DNA of 63,616 bases, counting the filler. It is 8 parts of 8 records of this genome, joined end to end, with 100 filler letters (N's around TTAATTAATTAA, not from the genome) between each part and the next. Parts side by side here need not be neighbours in the genome. Positions count along the whole stretch, not along the records: positions 1 to 20,747 come from SRR7504441_1670; 7 more parts are not named here. One strand, written 5' to 3'. Shown here one piece after another: positions 1 through 20,847 of this stretch. A program made the translations under genes and the position numbers. Below the pieces are notes generated by a model. It saw nothing but the letters and a program-made list of their open reading frames with translations, was not told where the DNA came from and did not search any database. The first letter of the stretch is position 1, and each line of letters begins with the position of its first letter.

Positions 1-3000
1 GGGGGGGGTGATACACCTGCAGTTGCGCTAGGCGCGCTAAAGACTCGAGTGGGCCACTCTGAGTACGCAGCGGGACTGGCCGGACTGGCACAGGCAGTGT
101 TAGGGCTGCAGCTGGCCTGGACAGCGCCGAATTTGCACCTGTGCCGGGTCAATTCGTACCTTGAACTGGAGGATCCTTACATCACTCTGCCGAGCCAGAA
201 TGGTAGCAGCTTGGCTAGCACGGGCGGAATCAGCTCTTTTGGGTTCACAGGAACGAACAGTCATGCAGTGCTGGCACGACCAAGCACGTCAGAAAGCTTC
301 TTTGCTCCAACGGCCAAAAAAGCTCCATTAGTAGTGTATGAGCACGTAGCATTCCCCTGGTGGAGTACTAGCCACTTTGCCATCGCCAGAGCACCCGGGC
401 CTGCCACATCGGAGCTTTCAGAGAGCTTGGACACACCCATATCATTCGGGTGCCTCAACGACTCCCGTGATGCCTCAACTTGGCAAAAGGCCTGGCATGC
501 GGCAAGCTGTTTATACACAGCCCACCATCGTGTTGGATCGGCCTCCGTTGTACCTGGAACTGGATTCATTTGCTTGGTGCAGCAGGCAGTGTTGGCAAGC
601 AGTGGACAGGACTTGCTGGTACAGCTCCACGAGGCGGCCTTCATTGCCATGTTTGTCCTGGTCGGTTTTCAGCCACTTGTGAGGCTATCAATGCTGCCCT
701 CAGACGCAACAGGAAAAGCAATGGTTACGATTGAATCTAGCATGGACGGACCTGGGTGGGTAAAGCATGTCGAAATATCTGCCACCGCTTCAAGAGAACA
801 AAGATCATTCAACTTGCCTCTGGCAGCACAGCATACTATCTTTCTCAGTTGTGCAACATCCAGCAGCACTCAATACCAAACCTTTGTACCAGTGAGTCTG
901 TCACAACATGCGTTTGCAAAGCTGTCCATGCAAACATCACTGGCAGCATCCACACATCTCCTGCCATGCGACAAGCTAGAGCCTAGCGGCATGGTTGGTT
1001 GGATTTGTCATGTGCATGGTAGTACAGCTCGAGGTTCATACTTGCATTGTGGGCAGCCAGAAAGATTACAATCCGAACGCAAACTGTACCATATAGAGTG
1101 GGCGGAGGAGGAAATTGTGACCTCGCGACTGAAGCGTGCAATGACCCTAGAATGGGGTCCTGGGAACGATACCCCGATTCAATCAATCGAAAAAAGCAGC
1201 ATCAGCGTCATGACCTTGGAGGAGTGTCTGTGCGAACAGGTTCATTGTTCTATTTTGCTGTGCGCGTGCTTGGGCTCTCAAAATACGATACCTGAGGCTC
1301 TTCAGGCAATGAGAGCTGCTGCAAACCATCATTCAGCTATATGGATTGCATCATCATGTGGTTTAGACAGAAGTGCCCTTTGGGGTTTGGTAACTTCGGT
1401 GAACGCTGAGCACCCGCAGTCGGCCCGATGCGTGTACGTCGATTCTGAGTGCAAAATGAGTAGTTACTTAGCAGCTGGACACTGTCCTAGGGAATCGCAG
1501 CTGGCGCTCAAAAAGGAGGGCATTACTCTTGTTGCCAGGCTAACAACGAAGCGTTACCGAGTGCAAGACCCAATCCAGTTGATCGTGCGTGGGCGTGGAG
1601 CTTTGTCCTCTGCCACAACGCAATTGCAGCGCAGAGTACATCTCTTCGCAGGATCCAGCACAGTTCAAGTTAGAGCAGTTGGTCTTAACTTCAGAGATGT
1701 CCTCAATGTATTGGGCATGTACCCAGGAGATCCTGGACCACCTGGGGCTGACTTTGGTGGAGTCGTGTCAGTTCATGGTGGTGCAGAACAGAATGTGCTT
1801 GGCTGGGCATTGGGGAGCCTGCAGTCATATGCTGTGACAGATCCTCGATTGCTAAGTGTGGTGCCGGAGCGCTGGTCGTATAAGGAAGCATGTGCAGTTC
1901 CATCAACATGGGTGACTGCATGGATGTGTCTGGAGGAGCAATTGGGTATGCGGTCGAGTACTGCATTGCTAGTGCAAGCGGCAACGGGTGGATTAGGTCT
2001 AATGGCAGTGCAGTTTGCCTCGTGCGCTAGTGCCAAGCTGTGCGGAACAGCAGGACACGCCAAGAAGAAAGCATTCCTACACTGCTCCTGCAGACTGCAT
2101 CTAGTCAGCACAACAAGGGACGTCGGAGTGTTTGAGGCTGATTCGCGCTACATCCTTGGTACCAGGAGTGCAGGGTGGGCAGCTGTGATCAACAGCCTCT
2201 CACATGACAATTACATTGCAATTGCTCTTGGGCTGGTCACCGAGGGTGGACTATTTGTGGAGATCGGTAAGCGTGGAATCTGGAATCGGAACCAGGTGGC
2301 AACATCAGGAGTGTGCTACAGCGTGGTGGCAATGGATGTTCGTGGGAGCCTGGACCGAGACTGGCAACACGCTGTGCTACGAGGCCTGAGCTTTCGAGGC
2401 GGTAAATCACTGCCCTTGCATATCTTTGACCTCCACCGCGATGGAGTAGAAGGATTCAGGCTACTGCAACGGGCAGGTAGCCAAGCGTCAGTGTTTGCCT
2501 TTCCCTGCTTCTATAGAGTATCATTTAGCGCATAACGTTAGTGCTAAGGGTTTAATATAATTGCGTCTCTCAGTTGTTTGTCCAGGCCAAATCGGGAAGG
2601 TCGTGGTGAATACGAACCAAAGACACCGGTTGTGGACTGCAAGTGTCGACTCTTCGAGCGCCCACACTGCATGCTATCTTGTGACGGGAGGCACTGGAGC
2701 ATTGGGTTTGTCATTTGGACAGTGGCTGATGGATAGCTGCAACAACATCCAACTATTATCACGCAGCGGAATAGTCGTCGAAGGACTAAAGCAGCTATGG
2801 GAACAGTGTGTAACAGGCGTCTCTGGCAATCTGCAGGTTGGGCTATGCAACGTTTCGCAGTCCCACGAGCTACAGCTATCAGTTGAGCGCCAGTTGTCTG
2901 GATTAATGCACTCTGCCGGGGCTCTTGCAGATGGTCTCCTGCAGGATCAGACTCAAAGTGGGTTGCGACGAGTTTGGGCACCAAAGGCACGTGCTGCATG

Positions 3001-3690
3001 GAATCTGCATGAAGCAGTCACTCATGAAAATTCAGAGTTTCAGACTTTCATACTTTTCTCGTCGATCGCTGTGCTACTTGCAGGGCCAGGTCAGGCTAAT
3101 TATGTGTCAGCCAATGCTTCCTTGGATGCCTTGGCAAGGCTCAGAAGTGGGCAAGGATTAGCTGCAATCAGTGTACAGTGGGGATCGTGGTCTGGAGCTG
3201 GGATGGCGGTTCAGACTGGTGTGGTGCAGTATCTCAGAAAGCAAGGGATGGAATCCCTTAAAGCCGAGCAAGGAGTTCGAGCTCTTGAGCTAGCTGTAAG
3301 TGCAGAGCATACAGTAGTCGCAGCTTCACTCATCAAATGGCCAGATTTTCTTGAAAGTCACCCATCGGCAGTACTCACAGGATTTCTGGATATGTTTGTG
3401 ACTCAGAAAACCGTATCTTGGCAGCACCATGCATCGTCTGTTGCAAAGTTTGGCATGCAGGACATCGATGGTAGATCCGTGGAGGCAATGGTGTCATCCA
3501 AGGTATGGGAGGCCGCAGGAGTGAAGATTGCGGTGGATGCACCACTGGCAGAGAATGGTGTCGACTCACTGTCGGCTGCGGAGCTGCGGAACTTGCTGCA
3601 GCTTGAACTTGGGGAGGCAGTGAAACTGCCCAGCTCTGTTGTCTTTGAGTATCCCACAGTGTCGATGCTTGGGCACTTTTTGCTGACACA
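1..3690 (+). other. Fully reducing PKS module: KS C-terminus, DH, pseudo-KR, ER, KR, ACP
   Basis: KS GALKTRVGHSEYAAG and SSFGFTGTNSHAVL; DH HRVGSASVVP (HxxxGxxxxP); ER VRAVGLNFRDVL and AATGGLGLMAVQ; KR TGGTGALG, HSAGALADG and GQANYVSAN; ACP GVDSL...VFEYPT. Confidence 0.92.
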
Positions 3691-6600
3691 GCTGTGTGCA
3701 CATCGAAGTTGGTCACATGATGTGCAATCGGCTTCTCTGCCCGAGAGCATGATCCTTCCTGACACAAAAACATTTGAGACTGTTGGTGTAGCGTGCCTGC
3801 TCCCTGGAAAGACATCCACATCATTCGACTTGTGGGAAACCTTGATGCTGGGATGCGTACACATCACTAGCAACCCACCGCTCAGGTGGCAGGAAGCCTG
3901 TTCTTTGGCTGGAGCCCCAGAAGCCGTGTACACTGGGGCGTTTGTCGAAATGAACAGACATACAGACTTGCTCAACGAGGCTGATGATCACCTCAAGCTT
4001 ATGGTTGGAGTGAGTCGCGATGCAATATTAGATACCAGAAGCCTCGTGCAACCGTATACGTGTGGGCTTTTTACTGCGGCTGCAGCACAGTCTTTTGTGA
4101 TCCCACTATCACAATTCCACATTTCTCGCGTCGTTGCGCAGAGTTTGAAGATCGGAGGACCTCATCACAATGCAGATGCTGCGTGCTCATCAGGTTATCT
4201 TGCGTTTGTGTATGCACTTGAGGCCCTAGGATCAGGAAGCTGTGGAGCTGCTGTGGTGACTTATGCTAATTTGCCTCTGTATTGACGATAGGTCTGTGCA
4301 GGTGTGCGGCGTATCACTACTCCGAGACCCGGCTATGCCCATATCGCTTTTGGACATGGGTATTCTGTCACCATCTGGCTCCATGTGTCCGTGGGATGCT
4401 AGCGCTGATGGAATGGTGTGGGGCGAGGGCTGCTGCTCCGCAGTAGTGCAGCACGCTACCTCCAAACAGGAGTACGTGACCATCACCGGATGGGGAGTGA
4501 CACAGACCAGTTCACAGCTTCCGCTCGGGTTCTCGGATCCTGCTGCAATGGAGTCTTCAATCTTACGTGCCATGTCATGCGCTATACTCCAGCCTCAGAC
4601 AGTTGAGCTGATACATATGCACGCAATGGGAAGCCCGGCATCGGATATCCCTGAGCTGATGGCTGTTACAAATGGATTGTGTGGAGTCGAAAGAATAGCG
4701 CTAGCAATCGTGAATCATAAGGCTAACTTCGGGCACGCTGTGACTGCTGCTGGGCTAATGGCAGTTCTCACCACAATCGTGGCAGTTCAGCAACGACAGG
4801 CTCCTCCGCTTTACAGCATCACATGTCCCATCAAAGAGGTCACGGCAGCGTGCCTTTCATTACCCTTGGATTGTAAGCTCAACCTCCGGGCGCAAGGTAT
4901 CGTCCACGCTGGCATACATGGGACAAGCGTGAGTGGTGATAACATCTTCATGCTTGCTTGCCAATGCCAGGAAAGTCGCGGATTACAATTGAATCAGTTC
5001 GTCAATGCTGCTTCTTTTTCATCATTGGTTAATCCGGCGTTACAAGATCAGCACCGAGAAAATTGCGATTCTAGCTCTCTTTCGCCGCTCATTGGTTTGT
5101 GCTGCAGAAACTTGTCTGAACTCGCATCGCAAATCGCCGACCGGACGGTTTTTGCCGATGATCAGCTGCTTGGGGATGCACTGAATTCGGTGCAACTTGT
5201 GCGTTTTACCCAGCGGGCACAGAAAGAGTTTGGAATGGAAATTCTGCCAGCTGTGGTGATCGAGCACAAAACTATTCGAGCTGCTCTTGCATTCATGGCC
5301 TCTATGGATGAAGCTGTTCAGGAAGGCGATAGCCAATCCAGCTCCAACGGACAGATGGCAATGGGCCATCCACAAGACAATATTAAAGAGCGCTGTCTTG
5401 AAGCTCTGGGCTCAGATCCTCCACAACCGCCCCTGCGCTTAGACCCCGTTGAAGAAGCTACCAAATCTCGAGAGCAGTTTCAAAATGCACCAACACCCAT
5501 GCTTCAATTCAGTATTTTGTTCTTTGGTTCAGACTTGGACGACACGGCTGAAGCTTACCAACTTGTGTTTGACATGTCACTGCTGGCAGACAGGAATGGG
5601 TTTCAAGCTGTGTGGTTTCCAGAAAGGCACTTTGAAGTGTTTGGAGGATCATTTCCGAATCCAAACCCTCTTGCTGCGTCTGTTGCAAAGCTCACTAGCA
5701 AGATTCGCCTGAGAGCTGGTAGCGTCAACATCCCACAGCATTTTTCGCCGCTAAGGGTGGCTGAGGACTGGGCAATGGTTGATAACTTGTCAGGTGGGCG
5801 TGTCGATATCAGTTTTGGTGCAGGTTGGAATGCAGTCGACTTTGCACTGCAGCCCCAGAATTTCTTCGTAAATAAGTTGGTGCTTTGGGAATCGATTCGA
5901 GCTGTCCGCCATCTATGGCAAGGTGGAAAGCTACAGGTCCGCGACGGCCTTCGTAAGGAGATCAGCATTGGAACACGCCCTCGTCCGATCCAGCCTGCTC
6001 TCGAGGCGTGGGTCAGTGCATCGGTCAACCCACAGACCTTTTGGGATGCTGGTGCTGTTGGATGCAACATATTGTGCAGCGTATTTGGTCAGACATGGTC
6101 AGATCTCGGCCAGAAAACCGAGTTCCACAGGCTTTCTCTCACACATCATGGGTTTGACCCAACGCAGCGGACTGCTACATGCCTTGTGCATACCTTCATG
6201 CTTGAATCCGACCAAGCCGCGCAGGCTGTGGCCAGAAAGCCTCTGGTGGATTATCTACTCAAGGGAATACATCTAATCAGATTGCAAGACCCAGCTATTG
6301 CTGAACTGCCAGATACAGAGCTCGCATCAGTCGCTGCATCCCGCTTTCTGCAAACAGCAAGCTTGATTGGTAGCCTGGAGAGCTGCAAAGCGATGGCATC
6401 GAGGATACGCTCAGTAGCAGGAATTGACGAAATTGCGTGCTTGGTCGACTTTGTGACAAACCGAAGGAAGGTGATTGACAGTTTTGGGTATATTACTCGG
6501 CTTTCTACATCTTTTAGCCAGAGATTGCCTCACCAACGAAAGATTCCTGCGATACGTGCTGATGCACTCACAACACCGTTTCCTCTGGCACATCGGAGCG

Positions 6601-9600
6601 CTAGAAGACATGCATGCTTCCTCAAGAGAGTCGAGTGTGTGCCTGGGACTGAATGTTTCGTTGTGACAATTCATTTTGATACCATGCCAAGCTTTATCCC
6701 TGGTCAACACGTCGTTTTGCTTCACGTCGACTCAGAAGACACGGTCTATGTGTTCGCATCACTCAGCGACGTGAATCTTTCCAATCAAACCATCGAGCTG
6801 GTGCTAAGAGCTGGGTTCTGGCCACCAATTCTCTCGCGTTTGCCTCACATGTCAGCAGGAACCCCGCTACAAGTTGATGGCGCTCATGGCACCATGATTC
6901 TGCCATCCCTAAAGGACTTGGATGGATTCAGGCGCATAACACTCATCGGGGCAGGTACTGGCATAGCTGGCTTGCGATGTATCCTCAAAAGTCTTCTCCT
7001 CAGCAAACCTTCACTCAAAGTCAATCTTGTTTATTCATGGAACTGTGCAAAATACCCTTCAATACTTTACCACGATGAGTTTCTGCTCATGGCACAACGA
7101 GGTCAGATCTCGTATACGCTCTGTGCAACTGGCGATAACAAAATTGTCAGTAGCCCGAACGTAAGGATCTTCCACCACCGTATGGACGCGGAGGTTTTGA
7201 GAAACGAAGTGTGCCGAGAGACGCTCGTTTTTGTGAGCGGGATGCCACTAATGGTCGGTCATGTGCTGATTCAGTTGAAACTCCTGGGAGTGCCGTCGTA
7301 CCACGTCAAGACAGAGTCGTATGGAGTTGAGTCTGCGAGAGCTTACCTTGAGGAAAAGCCTATTTCCTTCGTAGCTCACAGTACCACGTCTGGCGCCGAA
7401 CATCTCAGCATTCAGTGTGAAGTAGAAAGCCAGCCGTTCAGTACTGTCCCCCTGTCGTTTCCGGTATCCTTGCCAGACGAGGCTGCTGGGGTCGGTATTG
7501 TAGGTCTAGCCTGCCGCTTGGCAGCAGACGCGAATGCAGCTCCGAGCTTATGGAATGCACTCGGGTCGAATCTGTGTACGGTGACACGCTCTCCCCCTGC
7601 CAGATGGGTGGAGGCTTGCAAACAAGAAGGCATCTCTTCCTTGCCAGGTGCATTCATCGATGCATCAGAGCAGATTGACTGGCTCAAAGGCCCAGCAGTC
7701 GATGCCGAGCAGTTAGATTCTCACCTTCAAGTTCTGCTGAGCGTCATGGATGAAGCTCTGGTAGCTTCTGGCAAGCCTCGCGCCATGTGCCAGTACCAAT
7801 GTATTGGTGTTTTTACTGCGGTCGAATCTTGCCGACTCGTGGTTCCTACCCCAACCTGGCTGATTTCTGGCCTGGTTGGCCAGCTGTTGCAGCTGAATGG
7901 ACCACACAGAAATTCAGATGCGACATGTGCTTCTGGGTATCTGTCTGTTTGCTTGGCAGTGGAAAGCATCCGGTTTGGTCATTGTCAGTGTGCTGTTGCT
8001 GGTGGATCGGCTCTCAGTCTTCGAGCAGGGCCAATGTATTCGATGTTGGTCCAAGGAATATTTTCTAGAAGTGGCCGCATCGCGCCGTTAGACACGAGTG
8101 CAGATGGCACTGTTATCGCAGAAGGTTCGGTGGCCATCACACTGACCTCGAATACGTCCGACAGCCATGCATCTATCACTGGCTTCGGCACTTGTCGTAC
8201 CCTCTGCGCAGCGGTTACAGGAGTCACCAGCCCGATAGAGATGCAACGCGCTTGTGCGTCTTCTCTTGCAGCTGCCCGATATAAAGCAGGGGATATAAAC
8301 TTGGTCCATCTACATGCAACAGGTAATCCTCATGCGGATATTCCAGAAGTCACAGCCATGGCAGAGGTTCTGACCAATAGCGCCTGTTCAACCAACGATG
8401 CACTCATTCTTTTGGGTCACAAGGGAGTATTTGGGCACACTGAACCGAATAGTGGCATTCTAGGGATTGTTGCGACCGCTCTTAGTCTCAGTCACCGCCT
8501 TGTACCGAGTCACGTTCGTATAAGGAAGACTGTGACAGAGGTAGCCGCTCGTAAAGAATTGGACCTTCCTGTTACATATCCTCGAAAGCTGGAGGCCGTC
8601 AGACCACTGCGAGCTTCAGTCAATGCTAATTCAGGTAGTGGGGACAGTGTGCACATAGTGATGGAGGCGTGCGCGCGCAGTTGTGCCCAACATTCTCTGT
8701 CATGGGCTCACACAGCTCTGAAGGTGCCAGACCTCGTCTTCATTCCACATCATGTTGGCATTGCTATTCACAATATCGACAACACGTTGAGTTCTCTCAT
8801 TGGCCTAGGATTTCGACGAGTGAGTAGATTTATATCTGAAGCTGAGCACGTAGAGGTGCACAAACCCATCTTTTTGTGCTCTGTAATCTTACTGACCGGT
8901 TGCTCTGGTTTTAGGTTTGCTTCGTTGACATCGGCGGGCCGGTCTTGCTCGAGCTTGTTCAGGGCTTGGACAAGTACTCGCCGGTTCAAAAGCTGTTAGA
9001 AGACACTGGGCCCGCTCCATATCATATTTGCTATCAGGTTCAGGATCTGCAAAGGGCACTGGCTCATCTTGAGGGCTGTGGTCACACGGTCACAACCAGG
9101 CAGTCTGAATTTCATGCATTTGTACTCTCTCCAGATAAGCAACTAGTCGAATTAGTGAGCTTTGACATCTCAAAGTATTGGATTGGCTCTGATGGTAAGA
9201 TCAACTTACTAACAAGCCATGCAGCTGCTCCCATGCCTTGTGCCATGAAAGCTGAGTTGAACTTTGTTGGGTTTTGTGTCCGCTGCACTAAAACCGCGGT
9301 TGCTCTGTGCAAACAAAGCTTTGGATTCGACGTACTGGAATCCTCAGGCAATTCTTCACATTCTGTCATCCTGAATGCTGGCGGAGGGCTGGCAATCAAA
9401 GTTTTCGAGCCTAATAACGAGCTTGAATCAAGGGACCGCCGGTTTGAGAGACCTGGGGCATACCACTTATGCTTCTCCCGTGTACACGCTGATGACTGCG
9501 CGAAAGAGTTGACCCTTTTGAGTACCGCATATCAACACAGCGAGATTCGCCAAATGTCGGACGGACAATTGTTGTGCTGGTCACCTGATTCTCAGATTCG

Positions 9601-12600
9601 CCACCAGGCCCAGCTCTTGAAGAAATCACGTGGGGTTTCCAGCATGGCCAATCGCAACAGCGAGGAGTCACGCTCCCCTGTCATGCCATCTAATCACACG
9701 CCTGACCTCCTGCTGAGCATTATATCACGGCATGTGAATGATATAGCTCAGAAGTGCGTGGATGTTTCCTCGCCCCTCATGAAATCTGGACTAAGCTCGC
9801 GCGGGGCTCTTGTCCTCCAAAAAGCTATCACGGAAAGATTCCAGGGCATCCAGGTATCTCCAGTACTGATCTTTGACTACCCGACTGTCACAGAAATTGC
9901 CGCCCATATTCACGCCTTGCTTGAACCGATGGACATCAGGTGACTTGATGCATCGCCTATGATCGTGTGGAATTGACCTTGGTGTATGATGCAGGTGTGA
10001 CCATGACCAGCTAGCATCAGAATTACCGATGGGCGCAAAATCGGTCCAGAGTGTCGTTGCAGCAGAGTGCTCTGCTCCCGGTGGCTGTCGTACCTCTAAT
10101 AGTCTGTGGAGCTCACTCAACTCGGCGCATAATAGCGCTGAGCAAATTCCTCAGTGTCGCTTCGATTTGGGGGCATATGACGAGCTCAGTGTCAATGTAG
10201 GTCACTTTCTGAAAGATGTGGAATTGTTTGATCATATCTACTTTGACATGGGATCGCTGGAAGTAGAAGCTACAGATCCTCACCATCGGATATTCTTGGA
10301 GCTTGCTGCAGAGCTTTGCGCGGCCGGTCATGTGAAGCGTTCGCTTTCAGGTCTGGCCATGGGGGTTTTTGCAGGACTCTGTTACAATGATTGGATGAAA
10401 GTGGAACGTGGCAGCGAGACCTCGATCTTCTCAGCGCATGGTGGCGACATGAGCTCTGCCTCAAGTCGAGTTTCGTACTTGTTTGGGCTCAAAGGGCCAT
10501 CTATGACTATCAATACCGGCTGTTCGTCAGGACTTACAGCACTGGACACTGCACGTCACAACGTGAAGGCACTAGCATGTAGGTCGTCCTTGGTTCTTGC
10601 AGTAAACTTGCACCTTTCTGTTGATGGGTGGATTGCTCTCGGTGTCATTGGTGTGCTTGCTCCTGACGGCCAATCCAAGACATTTGATATCAAAGCAGAT
10701 GGGATGGGCTACTCAGAGGCGAGTGGGGGTGTGCTGATACAACCTGACTCATTCCACGCCCCTTGCTGTGTGGCTGGCTCAGCTGTGAATCAAGATGGCC
10801 GAAGTGCAAACTTCATGGCACCCAATGGATTGGCTCAACAAGCTGTCATTCAAGCTGCTCTGGAGGCCAGAAGCGTTGAGCATCATGTCGAAGTGCATGG
10901 CACAGGCACACAACTCGGTGATTCGGTCGAAATGGCATCGTTGTGTAGCGGACTGCTTCGTAACAGTAAAAGGCACATAGGGTTAGTGGTTGCCGGGGCT
11001 GTAAAATCCAACCTTGGGCACACAGAGGCGGCGTCTTCACTGGTAGGGCTCGTTAAGACCATTACCACCCTGCAGCGCGAATACGTGGCACCGAATCTAC
11101 ATCTGACACAAACCAATCCTAATTTGGACCAGCAGCTAGTTGAGAGTGTATCACCATCTGAATCAGCCCGGGTTGCCTTTGGTATGAACTGCATTGAGCG
11201 CGTTGGGGGCATCAGTGCCTTCAGCTTCAGTGGCACAAACACTCATGCCGTTGTTGTGTCTGGAGACAGGTTGGTCCAGTCAGAATTGGCAAAGCGCCGT
11301 CCCATGGTGCAGTTTTGCCACCAAGTCTTTTCATGGTGGTCTGCACCATTTACACAAGGGTCTCCATCCAAGACTGGTGTCTACAGGTTGGAAACTGTGG
11401 TGCTTGAACAAGTTGCAAGAATAGTAGGTACACGTGTCGGGCTAGATGAACCGCTTGCCGAAGCGGGATTTGTGTCTTTGCTGGCGGTCGAGTTACAACG
11501 ACAATTATCGTCTACTTTAGGCGTGCCACTTCCAGCAACAATTTTCTTTGATCATCCATCAATCTCAGAGCTTACTTTATACATCACGGAGGTCATAGGA
11601 TCCAACAAAGGACTTGATGCTCCAATTTCCAGCCAGACATCATTGCCCCAGATGGGAATTGTCTTTTCAGAGCAGAGCATCAGCGCACACGACTGGTCTT
11701 TACCTGCTGTGCTCTCTTATGAGCAAGAACAGTTTCTTACGCAGCAAGAAATGGCCCCAAGCTGCACTGCTTTCAATCTACTCTTTTGCTCAAAGGCCTA
11801 TCGTCATCTAGGCCTACATCAAGTAGAGGAAGCTGTGCGAAGCATCATCAGGCGTCATGGTATCCTGCGAACGTCCTATTCTTTCGAAGCAGGTGAGGCC
11901 AGACAGAGGATTGTTGATTGGGAGCCAGCCATTACAACCGTGCAGTCGCTCAAAGATGTTTTTCTTCATGCAAGCCGGCCGTTCGATCTTTTGTCGGGCC
12001 AGCCTCCAATTCGAGTTGTTCTTGTAAACGCTCGCGATGCACACTTTTTAGTGCTCATATCGCATCACATTGCTATCGATGGGATCTCTATTGCCATTCT
12101 GCAGGACGAGCTGAACCTTTCATTATCCACACTTTCCTGTGGAAAGGGGCTGGAGCAGATCGAAGATTTGCCGCCTTTACACTCGATGGCATTATACGCC
12201 ACGCAGCAGCGATCTCTGCGAGGCGACTATTGCGATTCTTCCTTGTCCTACTGGCGTGACAAATTTAAGGACAAACCTAGAAGTTTAGACTTCGGATGCA
12301 CACGCCCTAAGACCTTCACACATCTTGGAGCTAGTGTTCCAGTGGTTATTCCTGCGGGTTCCTGGACTGCAATCACAGCTGCTGGAGCCAAGGTAGCTGC
12401 ATCTCCCGCGGCCTGCTTGTTTGCATTATGGGCTGCTTTGTTGAACTGTTACACCAAACAGGACCAAATTGGGCTGCTTGTGCCGGTTGACCAGCGTGGA
12501 TTTCGTCGTTGCTTTACTGGAGTAGTTGGAAATATGGCAAACATGGTAGCCCTGTGGGTTGACGTTGGTTCTGTCGGATCAGTGATATCCTTGATGCGTC

Positions 12601-15600
12601 ACGCAGAGTGTGTATTGCTAGAGGCGCTCCAGCATGCCGACGTCCCTTGGCCGCTGGTAGTTGAATCGGTCTACGAGGCGCATGGCATCTTGCGAGATCC
12701 GAGCTCTGCTCCGTTGTGTCAGACCGTGGCACAGCTCTTGTCCTTCGAGCAACCTGCTTCGGAGTGTGAAGACGACATCTCATCGATTTACAACTCGATG
12801 TACTCTCACATTGGGGTGGAAACCGATCTACAGCTGCTGTTTCACGAAGATCCAGGGACAAAAGAGATAAACGCGCAGCTCGTATACTACGCTGGGCTGT
12901 TCACTCACAATTCTGCTATGCGAATGGCGTCACATATAGAATCCGTAGTGAGATTGCTGGCAAAAGATCCTGATCTGCAGATTGAAGACTTGCAGAAGAA
13001 AATCACAGGAAGTGTAAAAGGCGATGTTGTTGCATTAGAGTCACCAGGCTCCATATTCGCTCTTACGGGTTTACAGCTAGGATATGTGTATGGCAGAAAA
13101 GGCACAGTGGGTTCTCATTGTTACATGGAAATCGATGTCGACAGAATTGATGTCTCTCGTGTAGAGCTTGCCCTCAACAAGCTCATTTCTCGGCACGAGA
13201 TGCTCAGGGCTGTCGTCCGCACTGATGGGATGCAAGAGATAGTACCAGATGCTGAAGTTCCGTGGTACTCTATTTGTGTGAAACATGATTTCAAGAGTTC
13301 AACACAACGTGATGTGTACTTGAAGTGTTGTCGGCTCAATGCACACAAATCGCCGTATCCATATGACATTGAAACGTTTCCCGGTTGGTCTGTCCGGGCA
13401 ACAGAGATCGACAATGACTGCTTGCGGTTTCACATCGATACTGATCTCGTCACTACCGGAAATAGCCTCGAGCTGCTAGCCCTCGAATTAGCTCTGCTAT
13501 ACAATGATCCAGAGGCATTGCTTCCACCAATCAACAAAACATTCCGCGAGTGTTGTTCCGGCCACTACAAGCCTGAAGAGGTTCGTGCTTCTCAGACGTT
13601 TTGGGCGGATCGTCTGCACCAGATTCCTGGCCCCCCAGCGTTTCCTGCTTGCTGGGGAGCAGGATTCAACGCGGAGACTCCTGCGATGCAACGTTTCGAC
13701 GACGTACTGACAGAGAAGGAATGGACATCTCTCCAGCAGAAAGCGGGAAATTATGATGTATCGTCCACTGATTTAATCATAGGGCTTTTCTGCGAGGTCT
13801 TGCGAGTGCATGTGGAGGATCCAAACTTTACACTCACGGTTGTCACAAATCGCCGAGATGAGGAATCTGCAAATGTTGTGGGTGAGTTTCACGAAATTCT
13901 GTTGCTTGACGTCCATTCTGGATTTGAAGATACCCTCGAAGAGCGAATCTCTCTCCTGGCGGGACGTATGTCAACAAATAGTAAGAACAATAGAATCGGG
14001 GGCACAGAAGTGCTCCGACAACTGCGTCAGTGCCACAACAACTTCACACTGAACTTCCCCGTAGTCGTAACGCCAATGCTTGCGCAAGATATCAAGCAAG
14101 ATATCACGTTCCCAACGATCGAGGGTAGACCACGCGTGGTGTTTTCGAGCTCTGCAACAACCGGTGTTACTCTCGATTTCCAGTTTTTAGATCGTGATGG
14201 CACTCTAATATATGGTTGGGATATGGATTCAAGAGTCTTTGGCGAGAATGCAGGTCGGGTGATGTTCAATAGCTTTTCTCATTTGCTTCATCGGGTCAGC
14301 CTCGATGCTGGACTTGCAGCGTGCGATACTAGTGACTTGTATTGTCGCCACGCTGCCGTGTTAGACAGATGGAACGCCACAGCCGCACCTCAGTGCTTAG
14401 ATGTGTGTTCTCAGTTTGAAATCGCGGCAACTGCCTGCCCTCAGAGTATCGCTGTCCTGTTTGAGGGTCAATCACTGAGCTATGCAAATGCCGAACGGTG
14501 CACATCAGTCTTTGCAGCTGCGATCCGTCACTATTGCAGATCAAGTCAGTCCTGTATTGTTGGGATATGCGCAAAAAAGAGCATCGAAGAAGTAGCTGGG
14601 ATAATGGGTTGTATGCGAGCTGGATTTGCCTATGTCCCACTCGATCCTAAGTTGCCTAGCAAGCGAATGGACCATCTGCTGGTGTGCACGGAGTGTGTGG
14701 CTGTTGTGATACAGCAGCAGCTCTGGAACGAGCTTCGGCCCCACCTAGAAAAGCATGACATTTTGTGTCTGAATGCAGAAGCTGAATTGCTTGGTAGGCA
14801 CCAAGTGAGTTCCTGCGTACTGGCCTCAAGAACCGGAGCGTTGGCGTATGTGTTGTTCACCTCGGGTTCAACAGGGGTACCAAAAGGTGTGATGGTCGAG
14901 CATACCTCGTTGATGGCATTAGTATCCTCAGCACAGCAACATCTATCGTTGTCCACCATCGACAATGTTCTTTACAGCATAGCGTTCACGTTCGACCCAT
15001 CCATTGGGCTACTGTGCTTCACGCTATCGTCACAAGCTTGTCTCGTTGTCGCGAGGGACGGGGCTTTGACCAATCCTATGTACCTTCAGGAACGAATGAT
15101 GACTGCGCAGATCACATTCACACATGCTGTGCCCGCTCCAACTTCACTCTACCTGGACATCGTACAGGAGCCAGCTTTCCCACCCTCTCTGCTTTTCTTG
15201 TATATGAGTGGTGAGATCTTGACCCCTGAGCTAGCACTGAAAATACTGGAACACCACTCTGGATTGACACTCTGGAATCGCTACGGACCGGTCGAGTCGA
15301 CTGTCGATTCACACATGCATTTCTGTCATTTCGATCGAGCAAACGCGCCAGCCGTTGTGCCAATTGGATGTCTGTTGCCGCATTCAACTTGTTGTGTAGT
15401 TCATCCTCAATTTCATAGCATTCCAATGCCACTCTTTGCGCCTGGCGAGCTATACCTTGGGGGTCCAAAATTATCTTGTGGTTACATCGGCCAGCAAGAC
15501 CTCACATGTGCTACCTTCAAGTCTGAGACAAAGGAGCGGGTGTATCGTACTGGAGATCGCGCTATGTGGCTCGACTCGGGCAGTATACAGTACCTCGGGC

Positions 15601-18600
15601 GTGTCGACTTCCAGGTCAAGCTCAATGGTCAGCGAATTGAGCTTGGTGAAATAGAAGCCGTGGCTCAGCAGACAGAAGGAGTTTCTGACACCAGAGTCCT
15701 GTTGCATCAGAGCAAAACGAGCGTGGCCCAATTGGTCATCTATGTGGTGCCGGTGGGAGTACAGCCAAGCGAGGTATTGGAGACATGCTGCAGTGCACTT
15801 CCGACTTACATGGTACCGTCCCTCGTAGTCCCACTTGCACAGTGGCCACTCAATTCGTCAGGCAAGGTTGACAGAAAGGCCCTTCTTTGTCAGCTTGATG
15901 ATTTGCAGCTTCGAAGACACGCATGTCCTAATCTGCCCCAACATCTGAATCCCGGAGCCAGTCACCAGGAAGTGGTCACTCCAGAGTTTCTCCAGAGTCA
16001 TGAAGAGCATTTAATCTTAGTACTGCAGATTATTCAATCGCTGATCGGGCGATCCATCGACACGGACAAGGAGCTAATGACACAAGGTTTCAACTCTCTA
16101 GCAGGAATCCGTTTACGTCACATGCTCCAGACCAAACTCAAAATGGATCTGCCTCAGACAGTTGTCTTTGACCATCCGACAGCAAGAAGCTTAGCAGAGG
16201 CTGCACGGCCCAATGTAAAATGCCAAGATCAGACAAATCTGATGCCAAAGTCAGAGTCGCATAGCCCTCACAGCCACTTTCATCCAAACGGGATCGAACT
16301 GCTTCCTAGCAATCCAGTCACATGGACTGTTGCGCAGGTTGTCGAATGGTTAGAGTGCGAATTGCCCTTCGGCGAAGTGTACCGCGACCACTTTGCCGAG
16401 CTTCGGATCAATGGAGATGCGCTTTTAAACGATTTATGCGAGTCTGACCTTGAAGAGATGGGGATGGCAAGGGTGCAGCGGACGCAGTTCTTGCGGAAGT
16501 TGAAAGGCAGGCAAGAACATGAGCCAGCTGTTTTTACACCTGTCGTAGAGGACCAGGATACAGGTATGTCAGTGGACAAGCTTTTTGCGGGGCCAATTGG
16601 TGACCAGCTGGATCCTGTAGCAGTAGTGGCCGTTTCCTGTCACCTTCCCGGTAATATCCACTCGCCAGACGATCTTTGGCATGTGCTTAGTACAGGTGAA
16701 ACGCTCTTAACCGGAGCAGTTCCCACCGCACTGGCCAAAGTCGTACCACAAGGGTACTCTGGCGCATACTTAGAGAATGCTACGGAAAGGAATGGGACAG
16801 TTCCCCAAAGCATGCTGCGTACTGCAAGAACAGTAATGTCGGAAGCTGGCCTAGATGCGTTGGCGCAAAAGGGCAGTATAGCTATCTTTTATGCAAGCCA
16901 TCACATAGGCCAGGACCATATCAGAAACGCTCCTGCTATACTTCTGGGAGATGCGCTCAACTTGTCAGGCGGATCAAGAAGCCATTTCAATTGTGGGACA
17001 ACTGCCTCACATTTAGCATTGCATACTGCAAGCAAAGGCCTTTTAGATGGTGCGTGTACATCTGCTCTTGTAGCTGGATCCTCGATGTTTGAAACCTTGT
17101 GGTGGCAGCCGGTGGCAGATCTCGTGTCCCCGACTGGCCGTGTTCGTGCATATGATATCAAAGCCGATGGAATTGTTTTTGCTGAAGGGTGTGTCGCTGC
17201 GCTGCTGCAACGCAAAAGCACCGCAAAGAGTCGACCGCTGGCTCTCATTCTCGGTTCTGCTGTATCAGTAAATAATCCTGAGCTTCCACCTAACTTTCCT
17301 GATCAGGAAGCAGAGGAGCTTGCAATGAGTCAGGCTATTTGGGCAAGTAAGATCGTTGCTACAGATTTGGCTTTTGTAGAGTTGGTTGGGAATGGCAATC
17401 CCGTAGGAGAGTATACTGAATTGAAAGCGGCTACAGAACAGCTTTTGGGGACACGCAGCGTCAAGCGCCCACTGCTGATTGGTTGTTTCAATGGAAACTT
17501 GGGTCATGCTTCGTTCTCGGTTGGGTTGATTGCACTTTTGAAGGTAACTCTACAGTTTCAACACAAGTCTGTTGCCCCGGTGATCCATCACTCAGATCCG
17601 ATTGAGATCATTCAACAATGTAGCGGGAAATTACTTGTGCCAACATCCTTGCAGGGCATTTGGTCAGACCATGGGCAAATGTACGGATCCATTCACGGAC
17701 ACTCTGTCGGCGGTGCCCCTAATGTTCATTTGGTGGTGAGCGCTGAGGTTAGTAGTCCGGGACTCGATTACAGCGAGGTTGAACAGTGTGTAGAGGCTAT
17801 CGCGTGGGTGAACAAAGCTGTGGTGGTGCTCAAGGATGGGAGGGCAGTTGGTTACGCGCAAAGTTCGCAGTCAGACTCTGACAAAAAGTCATTTCGCTTG
17901 GAGCAGCATGGACTTAGAGACTACGGGAACGCCACACAGATCAAGCTTTGTAGAAGTGGACATGATGGTGTCCATCACTACAGACGCAAGTCGTATCGCA
18001 AATTCATTGGCGGGCTTGAATGGTCAGAAGTTGAGAAGTTAACCGAGTTTCTGTCAGAGTGTCGGTTTCCTGAGAAGTTGCAAGGTACGAGCCCTGGATG
18101 TATAACTATTGATGAGCTATCGAAATTCTTTCAATGCATCTCAGCACTGATTTCTCCATCTGAGGTTCTCCCAAAGTATCGATATCCATCGGCTGGTTCG
18201 AGCTACGGGGTTCAAGTGTACATGAGTAACTCAGGCTGCAGAGGTCTCTCCCGTGGAATCTATTACTACGATCCGATGGATCATAGCCTTGTGCTCGTAA
18301 GTAGCAAGCCACTGTCCGCCCAAAGTGCGCTGTTCCTTGTCGGGAAGGATAGTGCGATCCGGCCGCTATATGGAGATTGGGCATTGCGGTTTCAGCAGCT
18401 TGAAGCTGGCTATATGCTTGAGTTGCTTCAGCAAAGTTATATGCATATCTGTGGATCCTTGATGGCACATTTAGATCTTGACTGCGATCTTGCATTGTTA
18501 GCAACGGAGGCTGGTATGATGAGTTCCGCCGACCATCTCTTGGGCGCGTTCTCCTTTGACTTTGAATCTGTACCTCCCCCTTTGAGAGAAGACCTTGCTC

Positions 18601-20747
18601 TGGAAGTCGACATATTTGTCCGCGCCGAACCGTGGGGTCTGTTTGACCACGAGAAAAACTCAGTCAAGGTAGGCGATGTGCCATCAGAAGGCGCTCCTAT
18701 CGTCTTGTATTTGGCGCACAGCAGTTCCGACGCACGACTGGCCAACTTGCAGCTAGGACAGTTGGGGCAACGGATCTTTACTCGCAAGAATTCGCTTGGT
18801 TTGGGCTGGTGTCCTTGGGGAAAGATCATGGACCTTGAAGTGGCACCGAATGCGCTGGTGCATGGTCTAATTGGCGGCAAGGTCAGTTTGGAACAGACAG
18901 ACAGTCTATTTGCACCAGAGGATACACTGGAAGCAAAGATAATGACTGAGCTCAAGGATAAATTACCGAATCACGACCTTCCAATAATGTGGACCGTGGA
19001 ATCTTATCCACTTCCCTTGGATGCCAACAGCATGATTGATAGAAGATTGCTAGCATCGGAAGACTATATCTGGGATCTACCAAGAAGTGGGCCACCAGTA
19101 ACCAAGCAATACTCAGCAGATCATAGTGAAATCTGTTCAGCAATTATGGCCCAGGTGTCCAGTCTGATCACGAATCCAACTTCTAGAATAACACCCAGGA
19201 CAAAGCTCCTTGCTGGTGGGATGACTTCGATCCAGGCAGTGCAGTTGAGTAGTGCTCTGTCACGCAGCTCTGGACTTAAACTGCCACCCACCCTTGTCTT
19301 CAATTATCCATGTGTAGAGGATATTGCTGTGTTCGTTGGGCAGAAGTCTGGCCTGATTGACTCCAGTTCACCTCCGCCAGAGGTGAAGTCAGATTCTCTT
19401 CCGGGCGATCCACAGGGCATCGCTGTGATGGCTGCGGTGTACACGTTTTCTGGCCGAGATCATGATTTGTCCCACATACTGCTGGGAGGCATCGATCGCT
19501 GTCAACAAGTTCCAGCGACAAGGTTCGCTGTTCCCGACGAAGTCTATGCCAAGCATGGGTATTTTATCGAGAGCCCAGAAATGTTCGACAACGACCTTTT
19601 TGAAATCAGCCTCGGAGAAGCTACAGCGCTCGACCCACATCAACGACTAGGTTTGGCGTCAAGCTACAGTGCACTTCTCAAAACAGGCAGCTTTTCGAGA
19701 TTATCTCTCGTGGGCTCGTCTGTTGGTGTGTTTGTTGGGACGATGACTGGTACAGAATGGACCGGATGTGCCTCTGATTCTGTTTACAGTGCTACTTCAT
19801 CTGGAGCAGCTTTCCTGGCCGGCAGAATCTCATATGTCCTCGGTTTGCAAGGACCGTCATTTGTGGTCGAAACTCTGTGCTCTTCGTCACTAGTGGCTCT
19901 GGACGCCGGGAGACATAATTTGAACACGAATCGATGCTCGCATGCGCTGGTGACTAGTACCAACCTCCTCTTATCAGGACAAGTCTTCCACATTCTCTGC
20001 AAGATTCGCGCCATGTCTCCAGATAGCAAGTGTAAGACCTTTGACAAGTCAGCAGATGGGATGGCCCGTGGTGAAGCATCTGTGTCTATTGCTCTCTGTC
20101 CATATCATACAAAACAAACACGCATTGCTGGCACTGGTATAAATCAGGATGGAGCAAGCGCATCAATGACTGCACCGAACGGCATTGCACAGGGAACACT
20201 GATACGCTCATTGCATGTCCAGTGTCAAACTCTGGGTGTCACTGGTAGCTCCGAGACTCATGGGACAGGAACCCCACTCGGTGATCCCATTGAGGTTGGT
20301 GCTTTAAGTACTGTATTTAAGTTCAGCTGTGATGCGACGCCGATGGCGTTTGGCGCCCTCAAGTCACACATGGGGCACACAGAGGGAGCTGCTGGAATCA
20401 TGGGGATACTGAAGGTGCTGCTTAATATGAAGAAGGCACAGGCAATTCCGAACCTGCACTTCCGCGAGGCGAACCCTAAATTGCAATTGGAAGATCTTGC
20501 CCTGATGTTGCCATCAGGCTTGCTCGCAGTCAACTTTATCCCAACTTTGGTGTCAGGTATTAGTGCATTTGGGATGTCGGGCACTAATGCCCATGCTGTA
20601 ATGTCTTGTTCAAGGATGCGAAACGTCACCGATGCGATGGAGTCCACGCAATTTCCTACGATCCGCTACAAACTCATAGCTTTCTGTTGGTGGAACCCTT
20701 CGGCATCCGTCGTTGCCGCGTCTCCAGTACGGCGATTCATTCCTCAA
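1..20747 (+). CDS. Giant trans-AT hybrid PKS-NRPS megasynthase, 5'- and 3'-partial; exons 1-2476, 2586-4255, 4302-8855, 8915-9939, 9995-20747 (about 6,826 aa)
   Basis: ORFs 49-2535, 2561-4285, 4263-8999, 8945-9943 and 10029-20795 join in phase across GT-AG introns. The joins restore motifs: LLQRAG|QIGKVVV (ER end), GSCGAAV|VCGVSLL (KS) and EHVE|VCFVDIG (VOC). Many KS/KR/ER/ACP/C/A motifs are present and no AT (GHSxG) domain was recognised. Confidence 0.93.
2477..2585 (+). other. Spliceosomal intron 1 of megasynthase (109 nt, phase 1)
   Basis: GCAG|GTAGCC...TGTCCAG|GCCAA; removal gives RAGQIGKVVV, the ER terminal motif. Confidence 0.88.
3775..5300 (+). other. Divergent shortened KS followed by ACP-like domain
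   Basis: DAACSSGY (catalytic Cys), HMHAMGS in place of HGTGT, HKANFGH; ACP-like GDALNSVQL...VIEHKTI. Confidence 0.8.
4256..4301 (+). other. Spliceosomal intron 2 of megasynthase (46 nt, phase 0)
   Basis: GTG|GTGACT...GTGCAG|GTGTGC with branch-like CTAAT/TTGAC; removes the stop at 4283. Confidence 0.85.
5499..6510 (+). other. Luciferase-like monooxygenase (LLM) domain, MupA/Atu3671 natural-product type
   Basis: FSILFF, ADRNGFQAVWFPERHFEVFGGSFPNP, IRLRAGSV, RVAEDWAMVDNLSGGRVDISFGAGW, GIDEIACLVDF. Confidence 0.92.
6610..7325 (+). other. Ferredoxin-NADP-reductase-family (FAD/NAD-binding) oxidoreductase domain
   Basis: FIPGQHV, LQVDGAHG, LIGAGTGIAG, VNLVYS, VFVSGMPLMV, LGVPSYHVKTESY. Confidence 0.85.
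7488..8670 (+). other. Second divergent shortened KS domain
   Basis: GIVGLACRL, DATCASGY, HLHATGN, HKGVFGHTE. Confidence 0.82.
8740..9920 (+). other. Tandem VOC/glyoxalase (methylmalonyl-CoA epimerase-like) domains plus ACP
   Basis: First VOC: HHVGIAI, LLELVQ, PYHICYQV, LVELV. Second, degenerate copy: NFVGFCV...PGAYHLCF. ACP: PLMKSGLSS...IFDYPT. Confidence 0.82.
8856..8914 (+). other. Spliceosomal intron 3 of megasynthase (59 nt, phase 0)
   Basis: GAG|GTGCAC...ACTGAC...TTTTAG|GTTTGC; joins the two halves of the first VOC domain. Confidence 0.87.
9940..9994 (+). other. Spliceosomal intron 4 of megasynthase (55 nt, phase 2)
   Basis: CAG|GTGACT...TTGAC...ATGCAG|GTGT; runs without a stop into the frame of ORF 10029. 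Confidence 0.82.
10050..11600 (+). other. Canonical KS plus ACP (non-reducing module)
   Basis: NTGCSSG, EVHGTGT, KSNLGHTE; ACP AGFVSLL...FFDHPS. Confidence 0.9.
11705..16205 (+). other. NRPS module C-Cy-A-T
   Basis: C: HHIAIDG. Cy: LTGLQLGYVYGR, RHEMLR, FPVVVT, VTLDFQ...LIYGWD. A: FTSGSTGVPKG, YGPVE, YRTGD, NSSGKVDRKAL. T: GFNSL. Confidence 0.9.
16310..16510 (+). other. Sterile alpha motif (SAM) domain inside the megasynthase
   Basis: WTVAQVVEWL...YRDHFAELRINGDALL..LCESDLEEMGM..VQRTQFLRKL matches the SAM consensus (W..V..WL...Y...F....I.G..LL.L...DL..MG....R..L). Confidence 0.85.
16610..19340 (+). other. Non-elongating KS0, then an A-subdomain remnant with inserted SagB/EpoB-type oxidase (Ox), then T/ACP
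   Basis: KS with NCGTTAS (Cys position is Thr) and VGNGN (His lost); A8-like LDYSEVEQ..VNKAVVV; Ox RRKSYRKF, PKYRYPSAGSSYGVQVY, GIYYYDP, LEAGYM; A10-like LPLDANSMIDRRLL; carrier GMTSI...VFNYP. Confidence 0.82.
19415..20610 (+). other. Canonical KS of the next (truncated) module
   Basis: ETLCSSSL, ETHGTGTPLGDPIE, KSHMGHTE, SAFGMSGTNAH. Confidence 0.92.
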
Positions 20748-20847
20748 NNNNNNNNNNNNNNNNNNNNNNNNNNNNNNNNNNNNNNNNNNNNTTAATTAAT
20801 TAANNNNNNNNNNNNNNNNNNNNNNNNNNNNNNNNNNNNNNNNNNNN
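20748..20847. other. Artificial contig spacer
   Basis: 44 N + TTAATTAATTAA (stops in all six frames) + 44 N. Confidence 0.98.

Follow-up and report, generated by a model that had tools for sequence, protein, structure and literature searches.

Eukaryotic modular polyketide synthases (PKSs) have mostly been catalogued by their domain counts; very few have been interpreted as assembly lines and hardly any has had a product assigned to it, according to the accessible part of a recent account (PMC13749307). Type I PKS genes are reported to occur widely, and to be expressed, among uncultured marine protists, the portion of that report at hand giving domain presence only (bioRxiv 10.64898/2026.04.17.719054). 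In algae, multimodular PKSs devoid of integrated acyltransferase (AT) domains are established, displacement of the AT is thought to have occurred independently of bacteria, and nonribosomal peptide synthetases (NRPSs) are described as rare in the sections available (PMC4661987). Prymnesium parvum carries 44 small trans-AT PKS genes in addition to the PKZILLAs, with GT-AG introns, non-elongating ketosynthase (KS) domains referred to as KS0s and in-line flavoprotein alpha-hydroxylases, as far as the excerpted description goes (10.1101/2024.01.29.577497). In the present work, we analyze a stretch of DNA of 63,616 nucleotides (the window), assembled from eight contigs, the first of which (contig 1, positions 1-20747) is wholly occupied by a single gene fragment, open at both ends, that appears to encode a giant PKS-NRPS hybrid without AT.

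Four groups of described systems come closest to this gene. PKZILLA-1, PKZILLA-2 and the 44 other P. parvum genes resemble it in being eukaryotic and nuclear, as predicted here for contig 1, in their GT-AG introns, in their many AT-less modules and non-elongating KSs, in the presence of an in-line flavoprotein alpha-hydroxylase and in having been overlooked by annotation based on open reading frames (ORFs). They differ from it, by description only and within the excerpted source, since no condensation (C), heterocyclization (Cy), adenylation (A) and oxidase (Ox) module, no FNR fusion, no VOC domain and no SAM domain are described for them; no PKZILLA sequence occurred among the matches of the contig 1 gene. 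The second group is bacterial. MupA is an alpha-hydroxylase of thioesters bound to acyl carrier protein (ACP) domains, and in the alpha-hydroxylation bimodule (MupA with MmpD/MmpA of mupirocin, OocM of oocydin) a luciferase-like monooxygenase (LLM) of family TIGR04020, to which the LLM of contig 1 also belongs, introduces a hydroxyl group at the alpha carbon of a thioester held on a carrier next to a KS (PMC10952193, in the extracts available). The LLM of mupirocin is a protein of its own, with a KS0 in the bimodule (same extracts of PMC10952193), whereas that of the contig 1 gene is in-line, fused to a predicted FNR-fold reductase and flanked by KSs retaining the Cys-His-His triad. The third group consists of the AT-less PKSs and PKS-NRPSs of dinoflagellates, namely Symbiodinium microadriaticum 'pikAI' and Durusdinium trenchii 'PksJ', which are the nearest named KS relatives (39-40% identity), share a supported KS set with the contig 1 gene and likewise have no AT after the KS; identity is however low, the domain order is different and the similarity is one of KSs. 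Finally, bacterial Cy-A-PCP modules with an Ox domain such as BmdC, where PCP denotes the peptidyl carrier protein, have in common with the contig 1 gene the Cy signature, the A core motifs, the PCP serine and the FMN-oxidase motifs. Here, in contrast, an additional, intact C domain lies ahead of Cy, PCP and Ox are kept apart by a SAM domain and a dead KS, and the DxxxxD motif is not intact. AT-less modular PKSs of protists are a known kind of enzyme, but the domain order predicted from contig 1 is not a known one. No named or characterized protein with this order was found in the protein and locus searches, in agreement with an earlier reading of the letters alone (hereafter the sequence-only reading), which had recognized no characterized system; the LLM-FNR fusion, the VOC pair, the C-Cy tandem, the SAM domain and the arrangement of dead KS and Ox occurred in no named protein or paper among those searched.

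We consider it likely that contig 1 comes from the interior of a live nuclear gene encoding a giant AT-less PKS-NRPS hybrid, interrupted by four short spliceosomal introns, in an uncultured marine eukaryote. The frame, intron positions, domain identities, lack of an integrated AT, selection and marine occurrence are computed, while the chemistry is deduced from that known for the domain families. Five ORFs lie on the + strand of contig 1, in frames 0, 1, 2, 1 and 2. Joined at the proposed junctions, they form 20,478 nt, or 6,826 codons with 0 stops, which bears out the sequence-only reading of about 6,826 codons assembled from five ORFs through four GT-AG introns. Its statement that this frame is open at both ends holds too, with the precision that the 3' end is the end of the contig at 20747: the apparent stop of the last ORF at 20793-20795 lies within an artificial spacer (20748-20847) and therefore outside the gene, which runs off contig 1 on both sides.

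The exons occupy positions 1-2476, 2586-4255, 4302-8855, 8915-9939 and 9995-20747. Intron 1 (2477-2585, 109 nt) lies inside the enoyl reductase (ER) domain and splits a codon after its first base; intron 2 (4256-4301, 46 nt) and intron 3 (8856-8914, 59 nt) fall between codons inside KS1 and VOC1, respectively; intron 4 (9940-9994, 55 nt) interrupts the linker between ACP3 and KS3 and splits a codon after its second base. All four intervals start with GT and end with AG, none has a length divisible by 3, and their GC content (42-47%) compares with 51% for contig 1. A stop in the frame of the upstream exon is present in 3/4 introns; 8856-8914 has none, but its 59 nt shift the frame. The exon base is G on both sides of every intron (2476/2586, 4255/4302, 8855/8915 and 9939/9995). 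The 5' end reads GTGAC in two of the four.

Comparison with homologues supports these junctions to different extents. Intron 1 lies 35 residues ahead of the Rossmann motif of the ketoreductase (KR) domain, and its removal rebuilds the conserved C-terminal motif of ER; the junction is spanned by 24 of 221 high-scoring segment pairs to PKSs and, among the matches listed, 8/8 are gapless at this point. At intron 2, five of five uninterrupted metagenome homologues, from two clusters only, show no gap, with 44-52 of 91 residues identical around the junction and a single gap about 44 residues downstream in one of them. KS2, a paralogue within the same protein, also aligns without gap across this junction of KS1. 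For intron 3, positions 1-36 of the Pfam profile Glyoxalase_4 close exon 3 and positions 39-99 open exon 4, and P0271, the sole homologue spanning the junction, is gapless there. The variable ACP3-KS3 linker makes homologue alignment not diagnostic for intron 4 (16 gaps in 99 columns). This intron is bounded instead by stops: the exon-4 frame stops at 9941-9943, and a stop at 9987-9989 leaves the exon-5 frame open only from 9990, so that no donor later, and no acceptor earlier, than the chosen sites is possible. Introns 1-3 can be regarded as verified by comparison and intron 4 as well constrained, all four being deduced from DNA. Introns of this predicted spliceosomal type show eukaryotic origin, and the attribution to a microbial eukaryote made by the sequence-only reading is supported by them.

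The interruptions could be conceived otherwise, as boundaries between adjacent genes, or as frameshifts in a pseudogene, of a bacterial trans-AT PKS-NRPS locus misbinned with eukaryotic contigs. Composition is compatible with such a mixture: contig 1 has 50.8% GC and 49% GC at third codon positions (GC3), against 57-67% GC in the seven other contigs (20848-63616) and 61-87% GC3 in the four ORFs with Pfam matches there, and it may stem from another organism or from an atypical region of the genome. For the LLM, Cy, Ox and A parts, the best named matches come from bacteria, and the top Protein Data Bank (PDB) match of KS2, KS3 and KS5 is 7zma, which we take to be a bacterial trans-AT bimodule. 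This origin is nevertheless opposed by the fact that 4/4 interruptions run from GT to AG, are not multiples of 3, have a GC content below that of the exons and, once removed, leave the domains joined without gaps. Three of them lie inside ER, KS and VOC domains and cannot therefore be gene boundaries.

Further evidence on this point comes from natural populations, in which the same DNA recurs in independent runs. Of the nine public runs listed, seven carry part of the stretch; they represent five studies, and all are aquatic, seawater or marine metagenomes. One of the runs carrying it may be the source of the assembly. Contigs of four DNA runs from four studies (X1-X4) were aligned to positions 1-20000. 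Run X1 provided 33 pieces (24 at 99% identity or more, 8 at 95-99% and 1 at 90-95%), X2 20 pieces (15, 4 and 1 in the same classes), X3 12 pieces (7, 4 and 1) and X4 10 pieces, all 10 at 99% or more with 0 at 95-99% and 0 at 90-95%; no joint was seen in the four aligned runs over this interval. Record 2 of X1 contains intron 2 with 0 differences, and record 10 of X2 contains intron 1 with 1 difference, which is exonic. The X1 variant sites at 9902-10053 all have a depth of 3.2, matching a single contig over intron 4, a contig deduced from these depths and not itself seen. Because metagenome contigs of other runs keep the introns in place, the interruptions are DNA of natural populations and not assembly slips.

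Relatives of the gene were sought with a stretch of 1,200 residues reaching from ACP2 to KS2, compared with 1.84 billion representative proteins. This search retrieved 41,322 proteins at an E value of 0.001 or better, the best of which are short metagenome fragments: P0121 is 54% identical over LLM and FNR, P0125 47% identical over the end of LLM, FNR and the start of KS, and P0178 and P0130 reach 62% and 42% identity. All members of the clusters of these best fragments are metagenome proteins from ENA, JGI or Logan. The comparison was then extended to the spliced protein by BLAST. P0271, of 2,100 residues, is collinear with residues 2010-3664 (44% identity over 1,710 columns), a span covering the end of LLM, FNR, KS2, both VOC domains, an ACP and KS3, and P0277 matches residues 1178-2009 at 42.5% identity. 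The cassette LLM-FNR-KS-VOC-VOC-ACP-KS is common to the metagenome fragments at 42-54% identity. Their LLM domains are 66-73% identical to that of contig 1, compared with about 40% for bacterial LLMs, and one relative, P0275, carries a SAM-like stretch as well. In P0271 a dehydratase (DH) domain follows KS3, where the contig 1 gene has ACP-C-Cy, and P0271 thus belongs to a different line with a common cassette. To judge from these alignments, the contig 1 gene is not a singleton, uncharacterized relatives with the same central cassette being present in metagenome protein sets. The sequence-only reading had anticipated that ORF-based annotation would split the gene, and ORF-based protein catalogues do represent the family by nothing but anonymous fragments.

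The relatives run without a break through the positions of introns 2, 3 and 4 of contig 1. The ORFs of P0277, P0271 and P0125 end or begin at residue 2009/2010 of the contig 1 protein (nt ~6182), inside LLM, where the contig 1 gene is continuous. This break suggests an intron of their own, with intron gain or loss within the family, and differing intron positions of this kind would be expected for diverged eukaryotic genes.

Bacterial proteins remain far more distant. The FNR-like part was recovered in 6 of the 414 proteins compared, all six being metagenome relatives. Bacterial loci found with LLM plus FNR as query are 32-39% identical, and 18/18 matches stop by residue 366 of the 663 of the query. 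These matches thus end with the LLM or shortly after it, and the reductase fusion was seen in none of the 18 loci, which again runs counter to a misbinned bacterial locus, whose best LLM counterparts would end short of the FNR-like part. The FNR, VOC and SAM parts were not found by tblastn in 33 loci. Exon 5, compared with proteins of 1,979-6,299 residues, matched only bacterial NRPSs and PKSs, at 24-36% identity over 11-41% of the query. KS5 matched KSs of bacteria, Symbiodinium, Durusdinium, Cystoisospora and Bathycoccus at 30-40% identity. The Bathycoccus protein P0295 was discarded as a close relative, its top score with KS5 being due to six tandem partial KS copies, each 32-39% identical. 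This protein (NCBI, Bathycoccus prasinos, 1,867 aa) consists of about six partial KS copies of ~300 residues with carriers and no AT, an odd architecture or possibly an artefact of the gene model. Overall, the best named proteins are about 40% identical, and no bacterial protein exceeds about 40% in any part.

The lineage of the KS domains was addressed by trees drawn from a pool of 1,001 KS domains in 388 proteins, all matches of the query itself. A first tree of 89 rows, a quick IQ-TREE search under LG+G4, comprised 5 window KSs, 4 KSs of the metagenome relatives, 4 KSs of named eukaryotes (Symbiodinium x2, Durusdinium x1, Cystoisospora x1), 38 rows with an AT motif and 38 without. The two latter sets were drawn at random with one KS per protein and labelled by a simple motif rule. 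Copies shorter than 331 of the 390 model positions, including all those of Bathycoccus, were dropped and six near-duplicates of the relatives omitted; haptophyte and chlorophyte KSs are absent from the rows. A single set of 16 rows (SH-aLRT 95) unites all 5 window KSs with the 4 relatives, the 4 alveolate rows and 3 AT-less rows, and separates them from most of the 38 AT-less rows sampled. KS1, KS2 and KS4 form long branches in this tree. A second tree of 54 rows, computed by a quick search under a PMSF (posterior mean site frequency) mixture model, leaves out KS1, KS2 and KS4, their three relatives and 32 random bacterial-like rows, and it places KS3 and KS5 with the four alveolate rows in a set of 10 with support 100. 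Provisionally, these KSs appear to belong with protist KSs, outside the sampled bacterial AT-less clades. The term trans-AT used by the sequence-only reading consequently needs a nuance: the gene is AT-less in the operational sense employed for algae, no free-standing AT was seen, and its KSs, on this provisional placement, lie outside the bacterial AT-less clades sampled. The KS phylogeny proposed by the same reading as a check does group the window KSs with alveolates, albeit in quick trees and with an uncurated reference set.

With its KSs grouping with alveolate KSs and away from all the sampled bacterial-like rows, and with a predicted sterile alpha motif domain present, a misbinned bacterial locus becomes extremely unlikely. 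A subtler variant of bacterial ancestry would be the recent horizontal gain of a bacterial trans-AT line that acquired introns later, the gene being then a member of a bacterial family. The LLM, Cy/Ox and A domains are of types found in bacterial secondary metabolism, NRPSs are rare in algae according to the part of PMC4661987 cited above, and the composition of the gene is unlike that of the rest of the bin. Yet the ceiling of about 40% identity to any bacterial protein and the placement of the KSs with those of alveolates speak against a recent transfer, and relatives that are 42-54% identical and have other intron positions point to long residence in eukaryotes. We regard such a gain as unlikely, although less so than misbinning.

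The spliced protein has the order KS (C-terminal part)-DH-ER-KR-ACP1-KS1-ACP2-LLM-FNR-like-KS2-VOC1-VOC2-ACP3-KS3-ACP4-C-Cy-A-PCP-SAM-KS4-Ox-ACP5-KS5. The totals of 6 KSs (one partial, one catalytically dead), 6 carriers and no AT, with LLM, FNR, two VOC, C, Cy, A, SAM and Ox domains, match the counts of the sequence-only reading, to which DH, ER and KR are to be added. At least six KS-led AT-less modules are thus collinear in one polypeptide of 6,826 residues. Exon 1 encodes the partial KS (nt 1-300), DH (~448-1350) and most of ER (from ~1618), with matches to Pfam Ketoacyl-synt_C, PKS_DH_N and ADH_zinc_N and to NCBIfam models of quinone-oxidoreductase and Pks2 ER type. Exon 2 contains the end of ER, KR (~2666-3214; Pfam KR 137.5 bits, Tyr motif present), ACP1 (3485-3703; PP-binding) and, from 3764, the N-terminal two thirds of KS1, whose ketoacyl-synt match ends at profile position 197/252. 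Exon 3 continues with the rest of KS1 (to 4955), ACP2 (5094-5321), LLM (5508-6509), the FNR-fold reductase (~6612-7331), KS2 (7479-8696) and the start of VOC1 (from 8739). Exon 4 holds the rest of VOC1 (to ~9184), VOC2 (~9242-9514) and ACP3 (9698-9934; PP-binding). Exon 5 encodes KS3 (10038-11252), ACP4 (11388-11615), C (11712-12992), Cy (13032-14405), A (14415-15884), PCP (16008-16235), SAM (16314-16484), KS4 (16602-17735), Ox (~18102-18599), ACP5 (19137-19325) and KS5 (19413-20630), after which the contig ends.

In the 89-row alignment, KS1, KS2, KS3 and KS5 retain Cys-His-His. KS4 is catalytically dead: Thr stands in its Cys column and Val in that of the first His, each found in 1/89 rows, and the Lys has been lost as well. 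A divergent subtype, in which the motifs surrounding the first His are altered, comprises KS1 and KS2 and is common to the metagenome relatives. The carrier serine is kept in 6/6 carriers. The lack of an AT noted by the sequence-only reading is corroborated on several grounds: no exon has a PF00698 match, and seven AT-domain queries from cis-AT PKSs gave a best E value of 0.3 against the whole window, when AT-versus-AT controls gave 1e-34 or better among the matches listed. Moreover, the linkers after the partial first KS and after KS1-KS4 are too short for an AT.

The LLM is assigned to the MupA/Atu3671 family (TIGR04020, 337.8 bits for a cut-off of 244.45, profile positions 1-340/341). The 330 residues that follow it have weak sequence matches to NAD_binding_1 (21.8 bits, cut-off 22), BenC (E 1.7e-7) and flavin reductase (E 3.7e-5), and a sequence search of the PDB with this region returned only E values of 0.22 or worse. 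An AlphaFold2 model built from six sequences (mean pLDDT 68.7, confident core at residues 34-273) matched FNR-family reductases in Foldseek with an E value of 8e-15 and probability 1.0, including cytochrome b5 reductases and the Escherichia coli NAD(P)H:flavin oxidoreductase 1qfj (TM-score by target 0.78). The modelled domain would accordingly adopt the two-domain fold of this family, a flavin-binding barrel followed by an NAD(P)-binding Rossmann domain. VOC1 scores 45.1 bits with Glyoxalase_4 (cut-off 27), in addition to the 1-36 piece encoded before intron 3. VOC2 is weaker by profile (Pfam E 0.068), but 10/10 of its best ESM Atlas matches with a family are VOC, with a score of 0.92, and it repeats one His-containing motif of VOC1. 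Both domains can be placed, by these matches, in the VOC superfamily, with a likeness to methylmalonyl-CoA epimerase.

In the NRPS part, the HHxxxDG motif of the C domain is intact. The Cy domain presents the N-terminal Cy signature and lacks HHxxxDG; this signature and the DxxxxD motif, as applied to the second condensation domain, are presumed by us to be those of Cy domains. The A domain has strict matches to core motifs A3, A4, A6, A7 and A10, while A5 is a variant failing the strict pattern. Its specificity positions, placed by hand, agree best with the serine code at 5-6 of 10, the code and the anchors of the ten positions being those we assume to be correct. The domain labelled SAM scores 30.3 bits with SAM_2 (cut-off 20.5) and 24.0 bits with SAM_1 (cut-off 23) and is, on these profile matches, a sterile alpha motif and not a methyltransferase; no paper combining a sterile alpha motif with polyketide synthase and ketosynthase was found in the literature searched. 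Ox matches the bacillamide oxidase BmdC (E 7.8e-6, PDB 7ly5/7ly4) and, partially and below the cut-off, the SagB family (TIGR03605, E 4.7e-13, 49 bits for a cut-off of 78.4); an ESM Atlas score of 0.82 is a lead only. Both motifs that we take to be the NRPS-Ox signatures are visible in it.

These assignments allow a provisional route to be drawn. The segment KS-DH-ER-KR-ACP1 would extend the chain and reduce it fully. KS1-ACP2 would perform a further extension, after which the in-line MupA/Atu3671-family LLM would alpha-hydroxylate the carrier-bound thioester, drawing its reduced flavin from the FNR-fold domain fused to it, which is predicted to act in cis as an NAD(P)H:flavin reductase. Extension by KS2-VOC1-VOC2-ACP3 would follow, the VOC pair possibly epimerizing or ketol-isomerizing an enolizable intermediate with vicinal oxygens. 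VOC enzymes stabilize metal-bound enolate or enediolate intermediates, and this low-confidence guess is made because an alpha-hydroxy-beta-keto thioester would offer them such vicinal oxygens. KS3-ACP4 would extend the chain without beta-processing, and C-Cy-A-PCP would add a Ser-like amino acid and cyclodehydrate it to an azoline. The sterile alpha motif and the dead KS4 that come next are probably structural, KS4 probably acting as a scaffold only; the FMN-type NRPS Ox would convert the azoline to an azole, followed by ACP5, and with KS5 the line would go on beyond the contig. An AT encoded elsewhere would have to load the extender units. The presence of a MupA-family LLM speaks for oxygenation and that of the Cy/A/PCP/Ox part for an azole ring, as already suggested by the sequence-only reading; the product would probably be an oxygenated polyketide with an oxazole-type ring.

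That the gene is maintained by selection is indicated by its variation. Among the 63 variant sites of the four runs, 40 are listed, 39 exonic and 1 intronic. Synonymous changes account for 21/39 of the listed exonic variants, against 23.9% expected for uniform random changes in this frame computed with no correction for transition bias (binomial P 5.5e-5), and 24/39 fall at third codon positions (P 2.9e-4). The sole indel seen, in runs X1 and X2, is an in-frame deletion of 3 nt at 17750, in the linker after the dead KS4. The excess of synonymous and third-position changes together with this in-frame indel has the pattern of purifying selection on the predicted frame.

A number of observations weigh against a live gene with the chemistry drawn above, and several would suit a eukaryotic relic, unexpressed or without a working assembly line. 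No RNA run carrying the sequence occurs among the nine listed, splicing is predicted from comparison, and 18/39 of the listed exonic variants alter the protein. KS4, having lost Cys, His and Lys, leaves chain transfer from PCP to ACP5 or KS5 unexplained. The second Asp of DxxxxD is replaced in Cy, and the canonical Asp-Ser occurs in 1/6 carriers (ACP1 only), the other five being non-canonical. The DH motif is shifted by one residue, with the catalytic His present in the shifted motif. A Ser-like substrate of the A domain is tentative, coming from hand-placed positions, and the role of the VOC pair is a guess, no characterized precedent for VOC/glyoxalase domains in trans-AT lines having been found in the literature searched. 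Contig 1 carries this gene only, and neither a free-standing AT nor a phosphopantetheinyl transferase partner accompanies it there. Both KS trees are quick searches on a reference set taken from the query's own matches, with AT labels given by a motif rule. A relic would nonetheless be difficult to reconcile with 6,826 codons remaining open after splicing, with the selection pattern just described, and with the conservation of the catalytic residues of four KSs, of C, A and Ox and of every carrier Ser. Dead or non-elongating KSs are, in addition, normal in working AT-less lines, as described in the excerpt of 10.1101/2024.01.29.577497. We deem a relic very unlikely, and favour a functional gene.

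It is possible, though we would not call it probable, that contig 1 offers the first assembly-line view of a clade of AT-less PKS-NRPSs specific to protists and occurring in several marine and aquatic metagenomes, with a self-sufficient LLM-FNR, a VOC didomain performing on-line a reaction undescribed for PKSs, a SAM domain organizing the megasynthase, and an oxygenated product bearing an oxazole. The reaction of the VOC didomain could in that case be, for example, the ketol isomerization or epimerization of an alpha-hydroxy-beta-keto thioester. Contig 1 in any case displays some seven collinear modules of a protist line, whose predicted chemistry includes alpha-hydroxylation by an LLM with its own reductase, an unexplained VOC pair and oxazole formation, and it places an interaction domain of eukaryotic type inside a megasynthase. 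Extension of the contig, envisaged by the sequence-only reading, did not succeed: a scan of JGI metagenome contigs with KS5 gave 15 loci with a best identity of 33% and no extension of contig 1.

The remainder of the window has no demonstrable relation to this gene. The eight contigs, of 4.1-20.7 kb, are cut by seven identical artificial spacers, each made of 44 N, TTAATTAATTAA and 44 N, and adjacency across them carries no meaning; besides the first one mentioned above, they occupy positions 30839-30938, 36405-36504, 41154-41253, 49957-50056, 54752-54851 and 59374-59473. Owing to these spacers and to the difference in composition, the host lineage, the gene cluster and the gene neighbourhood are not readable from the window. 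Rfam and tRNA scans of the whole window gave no matches. On contig 8, an intron-free gene for a nucleotide-sugar transporter of the UAA family (59500-60501, +; Pfam E 3.7e-51) has its best named relative, only 41% identical, in Tribonema minus, and the high-GC part of the bin would therefore be without a close sequenced relative. This same match led us to abandon the notion that contig 1 might be a low-GC region from a genome resembling that of Micromonas. Six further long ORFs on the high-GC contigs have no Pfam match and may be chance ORFs. The other ORFs with Pfam matches encode a HEAT-repeat protein (37344-39164, -), an Amidohydro_3 enzyme (53234-54724, -) and an MFS_5 transporter (57518-58588, +).

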